A model generated the notes under the pieces. It saw only the letters and a program-made list of their open reading frames with translations. It did no database searches and had not been told where the DNA came from. A stretch of DNA of 64,000 nt from Nitrosopumilus sp. (GTDB lineage: Archaea > Thermoproteota > Nitrososphaeria > Nitrososphaerales > Nitrosopumilaceae), in contig CBDBLX010000002.1 of assembly GCA_965207445.1 (NCBI GenBank), forward strand, positions 128,001-192,000, given 5' to 3'. A program made the translations under genes and the position numbers. Position 1 is the first letter of the stretch. Each line of letters starts with the position of its first letter. Positions 36,677-55,244 of this stretch are shown here, piece by piece.

Positions 36677-38581
36677 GTAACTATTTTGCTTTTTGAAGTG
36701 CACATATAAGGTAAATGATCATGCGCATTTTTCCGATCATGATGATCTCGGCATTGTATATTCACATATAATCAATTGGCAATGATAGCGCGTAGTTGAT
36801 TATAATACGCAGATGGACATTAATGATTCTGTAGTTTTAGCCAGGTTTGTATCCCTTGCACAGCATATCAAAAAAGCTCTCGCCGCTGATCTTACCTGTT
36901 GCAAGCAGTGTGAATAATATTGAGTTGGCCTCCATACCACGAGACGTTCTGTTTCCACCACCATCATTTTTTATGGATACAAATACTCGATTAGTTCGTT
37001 CAACGTCATTATTGTCTGGTGGTATACCCTTTATGTGTAAAAAGGTGCTCATATGGTATCCTTCGCGTCTCCATCTCTTTTTGAATCTGTTTATTATGCC
37101 CTCTTTGTCACCGTCCCAGTCTTTTTCCTTTGTCCAATCATTGTTCATTAGTTGGCGCAGTTGGCTGTCCAAACAATATGAGGCCACTTGTCGTGTGTGA
37201 GGATCGTCTATTCCATCTGCTTTATAGAATTGTTTGAATATTTGAACTAATGTGTTGAGAAATCGTAGTACTGCACCTTTTGGATTCACATAGTGGATGT
37301 CTTTTTTTGGCAGTCGAAGCTGATGTGACAAACACATCTGATGTTGTAGTCCAATGTGACCCCATGATGGATTAGAGTCATGCCGTACTAGTCCATTGTA
37401 TTTTGGCAGGAATTTTTTGAGGGTGGATATTGTTTTGTTGTCAGTTATCTCTATTAGACAGCAGTCGTCTCCGAGCGCAATTAAACCGCACGCACGTTTT
37501 TTGTTTGCCCCAGGCCAGTCAAACTCATCACAGCCTAACTCGCTTTTGTTCAAAATTTTTTGTTTAATCTCATCGTGTTTTGGTTTTTGTGCTTTGGCAT
37601 GTGATATCTTGTCACGATATGCCGCCGATGGGGAGATCTCAACTTGCATGACATCTTTACTGAATTCTGCAGTCTTTGCGTGTGATAGACCTTTCATGTT
37701 TAATGTGACTGTGGTTGCAGAATGATTAGTTGAACGGCGTGCATGAGGCCTTACATTTGAAATGGGTTGCTGTACTTGCTTTTTGCATTTACTACACCAG
37801 CGACGTTTGATATCAAACTTGACATACTCTGTGATTGTTGTGATAATTTGGACCACCCTGTCATACTCGTCTGTTATGGTCGATGAGAGTGGGTTTTTGC
37901 ATTGTGGGCATGTAGTGCCATCTATCACCTCTGTTCTGGCTATGTCTACAGGGCGCGTAGTTTTGGTAGCTTTTTGCCCCTTGGGTCTGCCCCTTGGTTT
38001 ATTTTCACCTGGCGTTTTGTTAGGTTTATCACTAGCAGTGACTGCCTTGATGCCGTTTTTCTTGGCCCTTAGCTCTTTGTTGATCTTTTGATATTTTTTA
38101 TTGTCCTTGGCCAATTCTTCATTTTGTGTCTTTAACGTGTTGACATCTTGTAGCATCTCAGACACCCCATTGGACGTTATTTTTTTCTTTGAATTCGATG
38201 ACTCTTGCAATATCTTGTCAATTCCGGTATTCTCCAACCACCACTTACAACACTCGCAATCACTTTTGAGACATGGTTTTTTTGCATGTTGTGTGTTTTT
38301 GCCACGAGGTTCTGAGCAGCACAACTATGTTCCCTCCTCCTGCAAATAATTGACACTATTGCATTTCCAGTCACACTGATCGCTTAAATCAGATTTTTGC
38401 GATGATCTAATATCGTTCCTGTCTATCATTTTATTTGCACTTAATGATAGATGGAAGCGTTTTGATTTAATACCCTCTGGATTAAATTATTAGAGTTTTT
38501 GATCAAATTTTTTAAACCAAAATTATCATAGTATATAATCATAAGAATTTAAGTGTCCACTTCAAAAAGCAAAATAGTTAC
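36677..38581 (-). mobile_element. Complete IS66-family element (single-ORF type, 1905 bp)
   Basis: Perfect 24 bp TIR GTAACTATTTTGCTTTTTGAAGTG and 8 bp TSD CCTAATAA. Confidence 0.96.
36837..38324 (-). CDS. IS66-family transposase
   Basis: Coiled coil, KPRGRPKGQ, CPQC..CSKC zinc finger, CDE, HD, QMCLSHQLR, PPDNNDVER. Confidence 0.92.
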   Translation of the reverse strand: MCCSEPRGKNTQHAKKPCLKSDCECCKWWLENTGIDKILQESSNSKKKITSNGVSEMLQDVNTLKTQNEELAKDNKKYQKINKELRAKKNGIKAVTASDKPNKTPGENKPRGRPKGQKATKTTRPVDIARTEVIDGTTCPQCKNPLSSTITDEYDRVVQIITTITEYVKFDIKRRWCSKCKKQVQQPISNVRPHARRSTNHSATTVTLNMKGLSHAKTAEFSKDVMQVEISPSAAYRDKISHAKAQKPKHDEIKQKILNKSELGCDEFDWPGANKKRACGLIALGDDCCLIEITDNKTISTLKKFLPKYNGLVRHDSNPSWGHIGLQHQMCLSHQLRLPKKDIHYVNPKGAVLRFLNTLVQIFKQFYKADGIDDPHTRQVASYCLDSQLRQLMNNDWTKEKDWDGDKEGIINRFKKRWRREGYHMSTFLHIKGIPPDNNDVERTNRVFVSIKNDGGGNRTSRGMEANSILFTLLATGKISGESFFDMLCKGYKPG

Positions 38582-39360
38582 CCTAATAATTTACTACAAG
38601 ACTTTGAGCCGACACGCATCAAGACGTACCTAAAATATCACATTACTTCGATAACCGGACACCAGATCATACTTGCATCATACACAACTCCAAGCAATGT
38701 GAGTGACACGTCAATGCTTCCATATATGGTCAGCTTTCTCACAAAAAACTATACACGTATTGAAGAACGCTTATTCAACGGAGACAAGGGATACGACTCG
38801 GATCAAAACTGTGAGATAATATTCAATGCAAACATGAAACCGAACATAAAGCAGCGCAATCATACAGATGGCGCAGGTCATACAAACCGTGGTAAACCAA
38901 GCAGAAAAAAGGCAGCTGAGATCTTTGACCAAGATGCATACAAACAACGCGCACTTATCGAGGCAATATTTGGAGCAGAAGAAACAAAGAATCACAGGCT
39001 ACATTGTCGTATGCGTCTGGCCGAAAACAGAAAGCGGTTTAATAAAATATTATCGATTGCATGGAATATCAACGTCCTGAACAGATTTATCTGCGCTCAT
39101 GAAAAAGGGCAAAAGATTCCATCATACGAATGATAGTGACTGCTATCACACTTGCACGTTTTATGTTCTATAATCTGTCTGCTAAAACACACATGTATAT
39201 TCAAAAACAAAACGCACTATAGATAGATTTCAGTCTTTTGTAGATTGAATGTACAATAAATCAAGCTCACAGAAGGGTCACAGGCAGGCCTAATGTCAAT
39301 TACGCACCAACCTCATAAAAACGAGAACACCTAAATCGCAAGTCCGTCATCTGACAGTGT

Positions 39361-41826: not shown

Positions 41827-42345
41827 ATGAAACCATTTGTTCTGTGGATGACAGGACTGCCTTGTTCTGGCAAGACTACCATAGTCAAAGATCTTCAAAA
41901 GGACATTCCAAACTTGGCGATGCTCGATGGCGACGAGTTGCGAGAGTGGTTTTCACCAAAAGACTTTTCCAAAAAAGGACGAGACGAACATAACAAAAAA
42001 GTTGCACATCTTGCTAAACTTTTACTAAAACATGGTGTACCTAGTGCAGTGTCTCTAGTCTCACCATATGTGGAGAACAGAAGTAATGCAAAAGAGATCA
42101 TTGATTCTGGTGACCAGTTTGTAGAATGTTACATAAAATGCTCACTTGCTAAGTGTGAGGAACGTGACGTCAAAGGTATGTATGCCAAGGCACGTAAAGG
42201 TGAGATCAAAGGATTTACTGGTATAGATGACCCATATGAACCACCTGAGAATGCTGATTTGGTAATTGATACGGAAAATGAACCACTAGAGGATAGCGCA
42301 AAAAAAGTCAAGATATTTTTGGGCAAACGCAACCTACTACTCTGA
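41827..42345 (+). CDS. cysC: Adenylyl-sulfate kinase
   Basis: WMTGLPCSGKTT, LDGDELR, RDVKGMYAKARKGEIKGFTGIDDPYEPP. Confidence 0.96.
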   Translation: MKPFVLWMTGLPCSGKTTIVKDLQKDIPNLAMLDGDELREWFSPKDFSKKGRDEHNKKVAHLAKLLLKHGVPSAVSLVSPYVENRSNAKEIIDSGDQFVECYIKCSLAKCEERDVKGMYAKARKGEIKGFTGIDDPYEPPENADLVIDTENEPLEDSAKKVKIFLGKRNLLL

Positions 42346-43146
42346 CTAGTATCGTGCCGCAAACTCTTTAACTATTTTATCATGTATCACACCATTTGTT
42401 GCCAAAATTCCATGATGATGATATATGTCGTCTTTGTTATATGCTAGTTCATCTCCATTCACATCTGTCATTTTACCACCTGCCTCTGTTATGATACAGT
42501 GTGATGCAGCAGTATCCCACACTTTCATCTTGTTTGTGGTTGTAATGTATGCTTCTGCCTCACCTGAGCTTATCAGACCTACTTTGAGTGAGCTACCGAT
42601 ACTAACAAAATTAGATGTTTTGAGGCTCTTGATGAATATAATCTCTTTTTCTGTAAGGTGATGTTTTGAGCCTACCATTCTACACTCCGATAGTGTATCA
42701 ATATCTGTCACTGTAATTTTACTCCAACACTTGTTCTGATATTTATATGCGCCCTTTTCTTTTTGTGCTACAAATATTGTATTTCCAAGAGGCCACAATA
42801 TCACACCCAATATTGGCACTGTTTTTTTTACAAGTGATACCATTATGGTAAACTCCCCTGTGCCATTTACAAAGTGTGATGTCCCATCAAGTGGATCTAT
42901 AATCCAGATAGTATCTGATTTACCTATGTTTGGATTTTCTTGCTCTTCTGAGAGTATGGGATATTTACTCTTTGAGAGTACATCTGTCAAAATTCGATGA
43001 CTTGCAAGATCCGCTTCTGTGACTGGAGAGCCATCTTGCTTTTTTTCTGTCTTTGTGGTATTTTGTTTGTACATATCAAGAACTATACTACCTGCATTGA
43101 TGACTGACCTCAATGCAAGATCAAATATGGTGTTTGATATTGGCAT
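42346..43146 (-). CDS. cysQ: 3'(2'),5'-bisphosphate nucleotidase (inositol monophosphatase family)
   Basis: SPVTEAD, ILSEE, WIIDPLDGT, GSSLK, WDTAA. Confidence 0.92.
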   Translation of the reverse strand: MPISNTIFDLALRSVINAGSIVLDMYKQNTTKTEKKQDGSPVTEADLASHRILTDVLSKSKYPILSEEQENPNIGKSDTIWIIDPLDGTSHFVNGTGEFTIMVSLVKKTVPILGVILWPLGNTIFVAQKEKGAYKYQNKCWSKITVTDIDTLSECRMVGSKHHLTEKEIIFIKSLKTSNFVSIGSSLKVGLISSGEAEAYITTTNKMKVWDTAASHCIITEAGGKMTDVNGDELAYNKDDIYHHHGILATNGVIHDKIVKEFAARY

Positions 43147-43169: not shown

Positions 43170-43376
43170 CTATGTGGTCAATTCTGGTTTTAATGTCCAA
43201 ACCACCCCTAGTACGACAAACGGTATTGACATGATCCCTATAATACCAAGTATGGTATTGAACTGTGATTCGGAGATCAATGGATTGTTTATTATCCATG
43301 GCAATGGTAATGTTATGATTACCCAGATGATTCCTAATAATATGATTAATTTAGCTTTTGCTTTTCTATTCATCAT
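43170..43376 (-). CDS. Small two-TM membrane protein
   Basis: 68 aa with two hydrophobic helices. Confidence 0.7.
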   Translation of the reverse strand: MMNRKAKAKLIILLGIIWVIITLPLPWIINNPLISESQFNTILGIIGIMSIPFVVLGVVWTLKPELTT

Positions 43377-43552
43377 GTATCTAAATACTCTCTAGTCATA
43401 ATAAATGTGACAAGTTTTTTGCAAACTTTGTGTTTAATGTCCATTTGGTATAATTTTTATTTTTTTACCTTTTTTTCTAAAATTTTTTTAATAAAAAGTA
43501 TAAAAAAATCTATTATATTACAAAAAGTATTAAATACCTGCATTTTCTATAT

Positions 43553-43683
43553 ATGGTATGCCGATGGAAATCACTCCTATCGACTAGTTTAGCGTGACCC
43601 CGCAGAACGAACAATTGCACGGAAACATGTCCGAATTGAGAGGAATCTCTCACTGTTCTGTAGTACAGGGGTTGCGCCATTTT
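43553..43683 (+). ncRNA. Candidate structured non-coding RNA of unknown family
   Basis: GC-rich island in an AT-rich spacer, nested helices with G-U pairs on the + strand, BRE/TATA ~25 nt upstream, T-run at the end. Confidence 0.6.
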
Positions 43684-44183
43684 CATTCTAATATATGATA
43701 CAGGTATACTGATACTGAGCCTCGTGTGTTGCCGTTGGGGTCAACTGTGATCTCAATTACTGTATTGCCCTTTGGAATAAACACTGTATCATCTCCTAGA
43801 TATTCCCACGTGTAAAACTCCCCTAATCCTGCTTCATGTCTTGTCCCATTTAGATCAAAGTCTTCTGAATAGCTTAGAGTCTCACCATTTAATGTGATAG
43901 ACAACACATCTGGGCTACTTCCATTTGGCACAAAATCAAACACATACTGGCCGTTAGATTGATTTTCATCTATCATATTATTATATTCAATCTCAAATGT
44001 ATCTGTATAGATACCATTAACATATAATTTGGGTTCTGCAAGTGTGGCATGAAAGACAATCTCTTTATTTTGCGTGCTGTCCTTTTTCTCAGAGTGTGGT
44101 AAAAGTGTACCTCCGATTATTCCACTAATCATTGCTATAATAATTATAAATCCACATATTACTAGTAGATTTTTGTGTCTCAT
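43683..44183 (-). CDS. Membrane-anchored secreted hypothetical protein
   Basis: N-terminal TM, FDFVPNGSSP, FYTWEYLG motifs. Confidence 0.7.
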   Translation of the reverse strand: MRHKNLLVICGFIIIIAMISGIIGGTLLPHSEKKDSTQNKEIVFHATLAEPKLYVNGIYTDTFEIEYNNMIDENQSNGQYVFDFVPNGSSPDVLSITLNGETLSYSEDFDLNGTRHEAGLGEFYTWEYLGDDTVFIPKGNTVIEITVDPNGNTRGSVSVYLYHILE

Positions 44184-44234
44184 CTTTTTTGTATATGAAA
44201 TACCAATTAAAAAAGTCATGTGAATCGTGTGGGG

Positions 44235-44314
44235 GTAACCGTTCAACCCCCGTTATCTGCGCCAGACGTTAGGTGGTGAATTTGTGCTTATTTGAGAAGG
44301 GGTTGAACGGTTAC
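44235..44314. mobile_element. MITE family B (80 bp)
   Basis: GTAACCGTTCAACCCC...GGGGTTGAACGGTTAC perfect 16 bp TIR. Confidence 0.85.
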
Positions 44315-44354
44315 TCATGTGGGTGGTTAAATACTGTATTTGTGATAAATTGAT

Positions 44355-45008
44355 ATGGGAAATATTCAAAAGACATGGACACGTCCACAGACACCGACCA
44401 TATCTGAGAGAATAGGCTCTACCATACATCCCAAGGGCCCACTAAAACCCCGCATTCGAGATGCGATAAAACAGTTACAGCCTCAGATTAAAAGATTAGA
44501 CAGAATGATTGAAAATTTACAAAAGCGAGATTCAGCACTATTTCAAAGAGTAGTTTCTGCTGTTCAAAAACATGATCAACATACTAGTAATGTACTTGGT
44601 AATGAACTCGCAGAGATCAGAAAAGTTATCAAAGTTTTGAGTGGTGCTAGAACTGCGCTTGAGCGCATAGAGATGCGACTTGGAACATGCAGTGATCTTG
44701 GTGATACCGTAGTCACCATAATGCCAACGATCGCTTTAATGAAAAACATCAAATCATCACTAGGAAAAATCATGCCTGGAGCAGAGCAAGAGCTATCTCA
44801 GATGGCAACTATGCTAGGTGGATTCTTAACAGAGAGCTTTGCAGGTGAATCTGCATTTGGTACAGATGAGAATACAAGTGTCGAAGCCGAGGCAATACTA
44901 AAAGAAGCTGCAGTTATAGCTGGTAATACTACTGGGGAGATGTTTCCGTTTGTACCAACACAGACTCAGGAAACAACTATACCTTCTACAAATAATTTTA
45001 ATAAATAA
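44355..45008 (+). CDS. cdvB: ESCRT-III/Snf7-like cell division protein (CdvB paralogue)
   Basis: Snf7-type helices: NELAEIRK, LERIEMRL.T..DLGD, EAEAILKEAA. Confidence 0.85.
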   Translation: MGNIQKTWTRPQTPTISERIGSTIHPKGPLKPRIRDAIKQLQPQIKRLDRMIENLQKRDSALFQRVVSAVQKHDQHTSNVLGNELAEIRKVIKVLSGARTALERIEMRLGTCSDLGDTVVTIMPTIALMKNIKSSLGKIMPGAEQELSQMATMLGGFLTESFAGESAFGTDENTSVEAEAILKEAAVIAGNTTGEMFPFVPTQTQETTIPSTNNFNK

Positions 45009-55167: not shown

Positions 55168-55244
55168 GGGATCGTCGTCTAGCTTGGTATGATACTAGTC
55201 TGGGGGGCTAGTGGTCGCAGGTTCAAATCCTGCCGGTCCCACCA
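55168..55244 (+). tRNA. tRNA-Pro (GGG), CCA encoded
   Basis: Acceptor stem GGGATCG/CGGTCCC, anticodon arm CTAGT-CTGGGGG-GCTAG, T-loop GGTTCAAATCC, ACCA end. Confidence 0.93.

Follow-up and report, generated by a model that had tools for sequence, protein, structure and literature searches.

The window, by which we mean the whole stretch of 64,000 nucleotides of Nitrosopumilus sp. DNA that was analysed, carries on its plus strand a stand-alone structured RNA of about 122-125 nt. The element is flanked by cysC, a cysQ-like gene and a small gene on its 5' side and by a convergent gene and a cdvB-like gene on its 3' side (Table 1). The first-pass annotation of this DNA had proposed an independent RNA gene with its own promoter and a 3'-terminal T-run, and both were found again: a TATA-like box, preceded by the BRE-like heptamer CAAAAAG, lies upstream of the element, and the T-run is present at its end. 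The same annotation had regarded the RNA as purely non-coding, with a small ORF overlapping it by accident; the stand-alone character was confirmed, but a frame of nine codons turned out to be an integral part of the element. The convergent gene is kept across the family, with its stop codon within about 2 nt of the 3' end of the RNA in many genomes, and forms the largest cluster of neighbouring genes (41 members, main locus A).

Two other features of the region were recorded. An IS66-family transposase gene and a partial DDE transposase gene (below the Pfam cut-off) lie at 36837-39133, 5' of the cys cluster, and a second long inverted repeat occupies the intergenic positions 44226-44318, 5' of the cdvB-like gene, with the arm GGGGGTAACCGTTCAACCCC (about 44232-44251) being complementary to the arm GGGGTTGAACGGTTACTC (about 44299-44316).

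Table 1 Position of the element, its parts and its neighbouring genes in the window.
Feature	Position	Strand	Remarks
cysC	41827-42345	+	upstream context
cysQ-like gene	42346-43146	-	upstream context
68-aa gene	43170-43376	-	upstream context
Promoter	43521-43536	+	BRE-like CAAAAAG and TATA box TTAAATA (43530-43536); TATA-like 7-mer at the expected place in 110/110 motif-found loci
Predicted transcription start	43556-43557	+	leaderless, 1-2 nt 5' of the AUG; deduced from a syntenic published TSS and the 1269-nt spacing
Leaderless micro-ORF	43558-43587	+	9 codons, MPMEITPID, and TAG (43585-43587); frame kept family-wide
P1	43562-43582 (43562-43568 with 43575-43582)	+	weak hairpin made by the micro-ORF itself; minimum-energy fold
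Spacer, stop codon to P2	43588-43591	+	4 nt in this copy; family range 3-5 nt
Structured domain	43592-43677	+	minimum-energy fold and covariation in held-out homologues
P2a/b	43592-43601 with 43668-43677	+	minimum-energy fold
P2c	43602-43608 with 43655-43661	+	minimum-energy fold; the longer helix 43602-43609/43654-43661 also forms
Junction	43610-43619	+	minimum-energy fold
P3	43620-43623 with 43630-43633	+	minimum-energy fold
P4	43637-43642 with 43647-43652	+	minimum-energy fold
Bulge	43662-43667	+	6 nt; minimum-energy fold
Terminal C, then A and T-run	43678-43683	+	unpaired conserved C, candidate junction partner; T-run likely terminator
Convergent gene	43683-44246	-	no family in Pfam or NCBIfam; stop codon directly next to the 3' end of the RNA
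CdvB1/B2-like ESCRT-III gene	44355-45008	+	NF041005, E 4.8e-41, below the curated cut-off

Fold, strand and covariation

The minimum-energy fold of the window copy contains all three helices that had been proposed from the sequence (P1, P2a/b and P2c in its longer version) as well as the hairpins with the stems CGGA/UCCG and GAGAG/CUCUC. Two further proposed pairings were not recovered, since the pair probabilities were at most 0.034 for the 5' AUGG with the terminal CCAU and at most 0.039 for the CAAUU/AAUUG helix. The bulge described as AGTACA does form, but its sequence is unconserved and its length varies in the homologues. With a free energy of -42.8 kcal/mol (z -3.0), the fold was equalled by none of 200 shuffled sequences. 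Since the reverse strand also beats its shuffles and even folds slightly better (-46.1 kcal/mol, z -3.7), the strand is not fixable from the single sequence. Across homologues, G-U exceeds A-C at the paired core columns by 53 to 12 in the training alignment and by 34 to 7 in the held-out alignment, which supports the plus strand. The assignment to this strand is thus backed by the promoter, the G-U excess and a published transcription start site (TSS).

The expectation that the fold would be conserved and covary among family homologues was borne out in both alignments. In the training alignment, 93.5% of the cells are paired and 12 of the 32 pairs have changed on both sides. The corresponding values for the held-out alignment of 42 distant homologues are 87% and 24 of 32, compared to 37-49% paired cells for slid controls; the held-out sequences were aligned to the model and their values are hence biased towards it. 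From the model input, 11 of 77 matches were dropped (incomplete or missed by the regular expression) and 7 were re-added by hand. P1 is the weakest helix, with 81.5% and 65.4% paired cells in the training and held-out alignments, respectively. Judged by this comparison, P2, P3 and P4 are solid and P1 is weak.

In alignment A4, conservation of at least 97% was found for the A of the AUG, the U of the stop codon, GCG, CGCC, one G of P2c and the GAGG/UCUC of P4, the loop of which follows G-N-R-N-U. The CGCC end is present in 201 of 203 distinct cores, the extraction of which had required an end of the form C/T-A/G-C-C. The junction strand is variable in the same alignment, which argues against an aptamer or a ribozyme core; together with the mostly convergent orientation of the next ORF, this upholds the first-pass view that the element is not a riboswitch. 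The invariant GAGG of P4 (window 43638-43651) could pair with the anti-Shine-Dalgarno sequence that ends the 16S rRNA; it is, however, tied up in a hairpin, and the match is a post-hoc lead without a control.

Distribution and genomic loci

By BLAST, the element was found in 21 of the 24 genomes of the window's genus. A covariance model built from 62 sequences (R1) matched in 135 of 150 genomes and 25 of 27 genera of the family Nitrosopumilaceae, with one to four copies in each and a single copy in the window's genome, and a broader model (R2) added the genus g29. With R2, no match was obtained in 121 genomes of the order outside the family nor in 130 genomes from elsewhere in the phylum, and laxer filters yielded none in five genomes. 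The genus g21 gave no match either (0/4 genomes with R1, 0/2 with R2); its genomes (G044, G071, G095 and G114) have 0.8-0.9 Mb, are 79-95% complete and contain no copy that we could find. Since no copy was found in g21 or outside the family, the element is not essential to all relatives.

Among the 80 of 118 core-motif loci listed, the records are mostly labelled Nitrosopumilus, Nitrosarchaeum, Nitrosotenuis, Nitrosopumilaceae or Thaumarchaeota, and two Nitrososphaeraceae-titled records and one Bathyarchaeota-titled record carry copies that score like those of Nitrosopumilus. The Bathyarchaeota-titled record (L140) is a contig of 3.5 kb with a Nitrosopumilus-type copy of 126.8 bits and is probably mis-binned. 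We rejected as family members the match in G025 (L022), which is an AT-rich promoter likeness only, L123, which has neither P2 nor an ORF, and the pattern matches L262, L269 and L270, in which the domain is absent.

Three types of loci recur. Locus A, to which the window copy belongs, lies beside cysQ, an SDR gene and cdvB, locus B is convergent with a DUF1246/DUF1297 gene, and locus C lies between the genes for chorismate synthase and EPSP synthase and has a variant P4. A crude longest-ORF rule was used to determine the nearest downstream ORF of 134 loci: 109 have a convergent one and 15 one on the same strand, while in 10 no ORF was called. The few fixed loci and the mostly convergent next ORF characterize the element as a stand-alone RNA which is neither a leader nor a mobile repeat.

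Some copies deviate from the common form. The members of a third paralogue type (L097, L098, L099, L242-L247, L083, L265, L266, L272 and L273), usually at the chorismate synthase/EPSP synthase locus, have a different P4, mostly with an AAUG loop, and no separate P2c, and have kept both the ORF of 9 codons and the terminal CGCC. At L102:1575-2000 and L103:1492-1922, two copies of the RNA lie in tandem at a distance of about 300 nt, where each member has its own TATA box and one has 9 codons and the other 8. Two syntenic copies of the genus g29 (L121:1501-1627 and L122:1501-1627) retain P2, P3 and P4 and have a stronger 5' hairpin, while the ATG, the stop codon and the CGCC end are all absent, and thus represent a natural ORF-less variant.

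A published transcript at the syntenic position

According to Table S6 of PMC5069720, the fosmid KF901103 carries cysC, cysQ, a small gene, a 'hypothetical ncRNA' and a convergent gene, followed by a 'protein implicated in secretion' and a coiled-coil gene, the order being that of the window reversed. The 'hypothetical ncRNA' (thaum_gene2313) is listed with 114 nt and on the matching strand. Its in-situ TSS count of 72 equals that of amoC, compared to 12 for cysC and 5 for cysQ, and its RNA-seq coverage is 0 (PMC5069720). The starts of the flanking genes are 1269 nt apart both on KF901103 and in the homologous locus L090; this equal spacing places the TSS 1-2 nt 5' of the AUG, provided that there are no compensating indels. 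We conclude that thaum_gene2313, as matched by gene order, relative strand and spacing alone, is very probably a member of the family.

The entry itself is a bare row that gives no sequence, structure, family or ORF, and the main-text passages on Thaumarchaeota in PMC5069720 contain no discussion of this RNA. In the literature searched, the family, its fold and its micro-ORF are undescribed; the locus seems to have been recorded once, in this unannotated row, and the transcript may have been mentioned before. The putative marine small RNAs of Shi et al. from 2009 reportedly may include a crenarchaeal group. The passages of PMC2864571 that were covered mention neither Nitrosopumilus nor Crenarchaeota, and none of five ncRNA terms occurs in the main text of bioRxiv 10.1101/175141.

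A leaderless micro-ORF of conserved position

All 110 loci that were found solely by the 3' motif of P4 and P2c (8 of 118 were left out, six with short flanks and two duplicates) have a TATA-like box and a start codon 21-23 nt beyond it, and in 109 of them a frame of 8-9 codons follows, then 3-5 nt and then P2, the lone exception being a mis-picked first ATG. By an automatic rule, 8-9 codons were also assigned to 40 of 42 held-out distant homologues; of the two remaining loci, one has a 7-codon frame and the other a mis-picked TATA. Among the 110 loci, TAA is used in 75, TAG in 30 and TGA in 5 (including the mis-picked case), and the spacer between stop codon and P2 measures 3 nt in 45, 4 nt in 58 and 5 nt in 6. 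The length of the frame changes by steps of 3 nt and that of the neighbouring spacer by single bases, and of 73 distinct sequences, 53 carry a stop in the one and 19 in the other of the two alternative frames. In some copies the ATG is replaced by GTG. At L023:1467-1599, ACA is found in its place, with an in-frame TTG one codon on.

In the window's genome, the distances from TATA box to ATG of long ORFs peak at 21-22 nt (45 and 48 sites, about 8 elsewhere), and 56 of 852 sites with TATA box and ATG (6.6%) open a frame of 8-9 codons by chance. The pattern TATA-ATG-24 nt-TRR-GCGY occurs in 85 of 89 family genomes and in 8 of 211 others; in six matches from five f15 genomes the structured domain is absent. 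The overlapping ORF of the first-pass annotation, with 14 codons from the ATG at 43553, is not the conserved frame, since its ATG lies 16 nt from the TATA box, which is background spacing in the window's genome, and ATG is outside the eight commonest triplets at the equivalent site of 66 homologues.

The encoded peptide drifts. We found 60 different peptides among 65 nine-codon sequences, with pN/pS values of 1.58, 1.26 and 0.98 for close, middle and all pairs, respectively, and third codon positions that vary no more than second ones. D recurs at codon 9 (41/65) and D or V at codon 4 (49/65), and one peptide was found in 24 of the 110 loci. At the stop columns of 62 sequences, TGG was seen in none with about one expected, a difference which is not significant. 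On these comparative grounds, we consider with good confidence that the RNA is translated, and ribosome position, rather than the peptide, is probably what matters; we infer that the act and the end-point of translation, and not the product, are under selection. The conserved position of the ORF and the lack of conservation of the peptide suggest that the ribosome itself is the partner of the RNA.

Possible pairing of the 3' end with the junction

Duplexes between junction and tail were more stable within a copy than between copies, with -5.6 versus -4.5 kcal/mol in 55 representatives of less than 80% identity (0 of 20000 permutations) and -4.4 versus -3.9 kcal/mol in a stricter set of 35 representatives of less than 70% identity (p 0.016), in tests that ignore kinship. 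An upstream control segment gave no such effect of own versus other. The base 5' of the junction GG pairs with the base 3' of the terminal CC in 28 of 33 representatives (null 14.1; U-A 10, A-U 10, G-C 5, G-U 3), a count from which 22 of the 55 were left out for having no junction GG. The duplex of the window copy is weak (-2.0 kcal/mol). A tree-aware test, which was underpowered, identified 1-2 independent pairs on well-supported branches (p = 1), and by parsimony the two sites require 18 and 12 changes separately and 21 jointly. In g29, the ATG, the stop codon and the CGCC end were lost together, a single event in one lineage. These results are suggestive of a pairing of the 3' CC end with the junction GG, which would be a pseudoknot in competition with the outermost pairs of P2.

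Comparison with known RNA classes

The element is a new RNA family with an architecture unlike any class tested, for which a mode of action can be proposed. In agreement with the first-pass statement that it resembles no known family, Rfam 15 at gathering thresholds matched nothing in the whole window except for one tRNA elsewhere in it. Near the element only chance-level matches were obtained at E up to 10 (best E 0.71), and 10 homologue loci gave none at E up to 1. ARAGORN called only a tRNA-Pro at 55168 in the window and neither a tRNA nor a tmRNA at the element. SRP and RNase P RNA were rejected, since both were found over cut-off elsewhere in the window's genome. SmpB (PF01668), which was detected in 10 of 14 controls, was not found in this genome (96% complete), and neither was Ro60/TROVE (PF05731), the protein that would go with a Y RNA. 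A box H/ACA or C/D guide was rejected because the ACA of the bulge varies and no conserved box C (consensus RUGAUGA) is present in the alignments. Likenesses to H/ACA RNAs, to the glycine and cobalamin riboswitches and to the sarcin-ricin loop proved unconserved or wrongly ordered.

As in attenuators, comparative evidence places a short leader ORF at the start of the transcript and, as in dual-function small RNAs, a small ORF resides in a stand-alone RNA, the peptide showing no purifying selection. The nearest archaeal likeness described in PMC12612679 is sRNA154 of Methanosarcina mazei, also a stand-alone small RNA with a leaderless small ORF. Its ORF of 20 aa is described as highly conserved and it regulates mRNAs, whereas the family described here has 7-9 codons, a drifting peptide and a stop codon fixed against a three-way-junction domain. 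Leader-peptide attenuators and the attenuator RNAs released from them, such as rnTrpL/peTrpL (PMC12612679), share the short ORF whose ribosome is placed so as to alter folding and a length of about 130-140 nt; here, by contrast, there is mostly no same-strand operon, there are no control codons and no bacterial-type terminator hairpin, and the promoter is archaeal.

tmRNA is likewise a structured RNA with a frame of about 10 codons that acts at the ribosome, and some copies of the element end in GCC followed by A. Unlike tmRNA, which has a resume codon, the element starts its frame with an AUG; no tRNA-like domain was called in it, it has no conserved tag, SmpB was not found, and just 51 of 203 cores have an A after the CC. 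In readthrough pseudoknots and bacterial SECIS elements, too, a structure follows closely on a stop codon, at the entry channel of the ribosome. Here, in contrast, all three stops are used, UAA most, and there is no downstream coding region; unlike in recoding structures, no reading frame is kept past the stop, since the length of the spacer varies by single bases. By analogy, the element would come closest in its action to a leader-peptide device that lacks an operon, or to a dual-function small RNA without a conserved peptide.

A possible mode of action and its alternatives

In the mode of action that we favour, a ribosome would load on the leaderless 5' end, unwind the weak P1 and reach the stop codon, at which point, owing to the spacer of 3-5 nt, the invariant GCG/CGC pairs of P2 would come to lie where the mRNA enters the ribosome. 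Roughly 6 nt of mRNA beyond the codon in the A site lie single-stranded in a ribosome. The ribosome would melt the outer pairs of P2, and the freed 3' CGCC tail could pair with the N-N-G-G of the junction as a pseudoknot, yielding a ribosome-bound conformation. In the least certain step, the domain would hold or delay the terminating ribosome and serve as a ribosome-parking or translation-sensing device, and the 1-4 separately promoted paralogues per genome would act as such devices. We give this whole switch-and-retention model somewhat less than an even chance; its frame side derives from sequence comparison and its ribosome steps are inferred. The length of the ORF could be set by the P1 hairpin instead of by ribosome geometry, and in the g29 copies the core fold persists without an ORF. 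A further formulation, in which the element would be an archaeal ribosome-targeting RNA, that is, a leaderless mini-mRNA with a throw-away peptide whose ribosome-triggered pseudoknot at the stop codon traps or releases the ribosome, appears possible but is rather unlikely; the family would then constitute an RNA-based system for ribosome storage or translation sensing that is near-universal in Nitrosopumilaceae.

Few marine microbes are as abundant as the Nitrosopumilaceae, to which much of the nitrification in the ocean is due, and we know of few regulatory RNAs that have been described from them. The family reported here is near-universal and multicopy in this group and seems to be transcribed in situ, with a TSS count on the level of amoC, and an ORF that seems to be kept for the position of its stop, with no downstream gene to control, fits none of the classes matched. 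If the ribosome is held at the stop, this would bear on the management of idle ribosomes in slow-growing archaea. Cultured members of the Nitrosopumilaceae exist. On the fallback reading, it is still a new, well-covarying RNA family for Rfam.

Among the alternatives, the RNA might act in trans, with P4 and the terminal helix binding a protein and the micro-ORF shielding the 5' end or coupling the lifetime of the RNA to translation, in the manner of a dual-function small RNA; we regard this as unlikely, if conceivable. The GAGG/UCUC of P4, kept both in sequence and in pairing, and its G-N-R-N-U loop would suit a binding site, the pairing of the 3' end could merely hide it from nucleases, and in the g29 copies the fold is retained although the ORF is gone. 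The leaderless ORF of sRNA154 provides an archaeal precedent (PMC12612679). Protein binding, however, leaves the stop codon 3-5 nt from P2 and the frame of 7-9 codons unexplained across 25 genera, and no conserved single-stranded seed for base-pairing was seen, the junction being variable in alignment A4.

It is improbable that the peptide is the product, as a signal or small regulator, and the structure a stabilising 3' region. The frame is conserved, the recurrence of residues at codons 4 and 9 and of one peptide in 24 of 110 loci would fit a product, and signal peptides can diversify fast. But pN/pS is about 1 or higher, the recurring residues fall on conserved bases of P1, a peptide of 9 residues carries no secretion signal and a 90-nt junction domain with invariant bases would be excessive for stability alone. 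The opposite reading, a pure non-coding RNA in which the AUG and the URR of the stop serve the structure or the promoter and the frame simply results from the geometry of P1, has an equally poor standing in our view. P1 does run from the G of the AUG to the last sense codon, the absence of TGG is insignificant and the g29 copies lack the frame; yet the distance from start to stop changes by triplets only (7, 8 or 9 codons), GTG substitutes for ATG in some copies, the frame is kept where P1 pairs poorly (65% of cells) and the AUG has the spacing that is typical of leaderless protein genes.

Attenuation in cis by means of a leader peptide, in which the position of the ribosome would set termination at the U-tract and read-through would be antisense to the convergent gene, is very unlikely. 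The layout of the element is like that of leader-peptide attenuators, a pairing of tail and junction would hide the U-tract, and the convergent ORF next to most loci (109/134) would supply the target. The usually convergent next gene at the same time argues that the element is not an attenuator, since a same-strand ORF follows in 15 of 134 loci only; moreover, the convergent genes have no relation to one another and code for an unknown protein, a DUF1246/DUF1297 protein and EPSP synthase, and the per-codon spectra show no conserved control codons or arrest motif.

A MITE remnant or a self-cleaving ribozyme is extremely improbable: several copies per genome, the IS66 and DDE transposase genes 4-7 kb away and an imperfect 17-nt inverted repeat flanking the window copy would suit a MITE, but, in line with the first-pass annotation, the window's genome has one copy and the paralogues sit at few fixed syntenic loci, the P4 motif gave 0 matches in viral contigs, the flanking repeat was unseen in the homologues inspected and its right arm lies inside the coding sequence of the neighbour; against a ribozyme speak the absence of an Rfam ribozyme match and of an invariant unpaired core.

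As a minor observation on the assembly, the window's genome has a contamination figure of 5.47%, and an identical 57-nt context was found at C1:119001 and C2:118827. The near-equal offsets of this shared context suggest that C1 duplicates part of C2.
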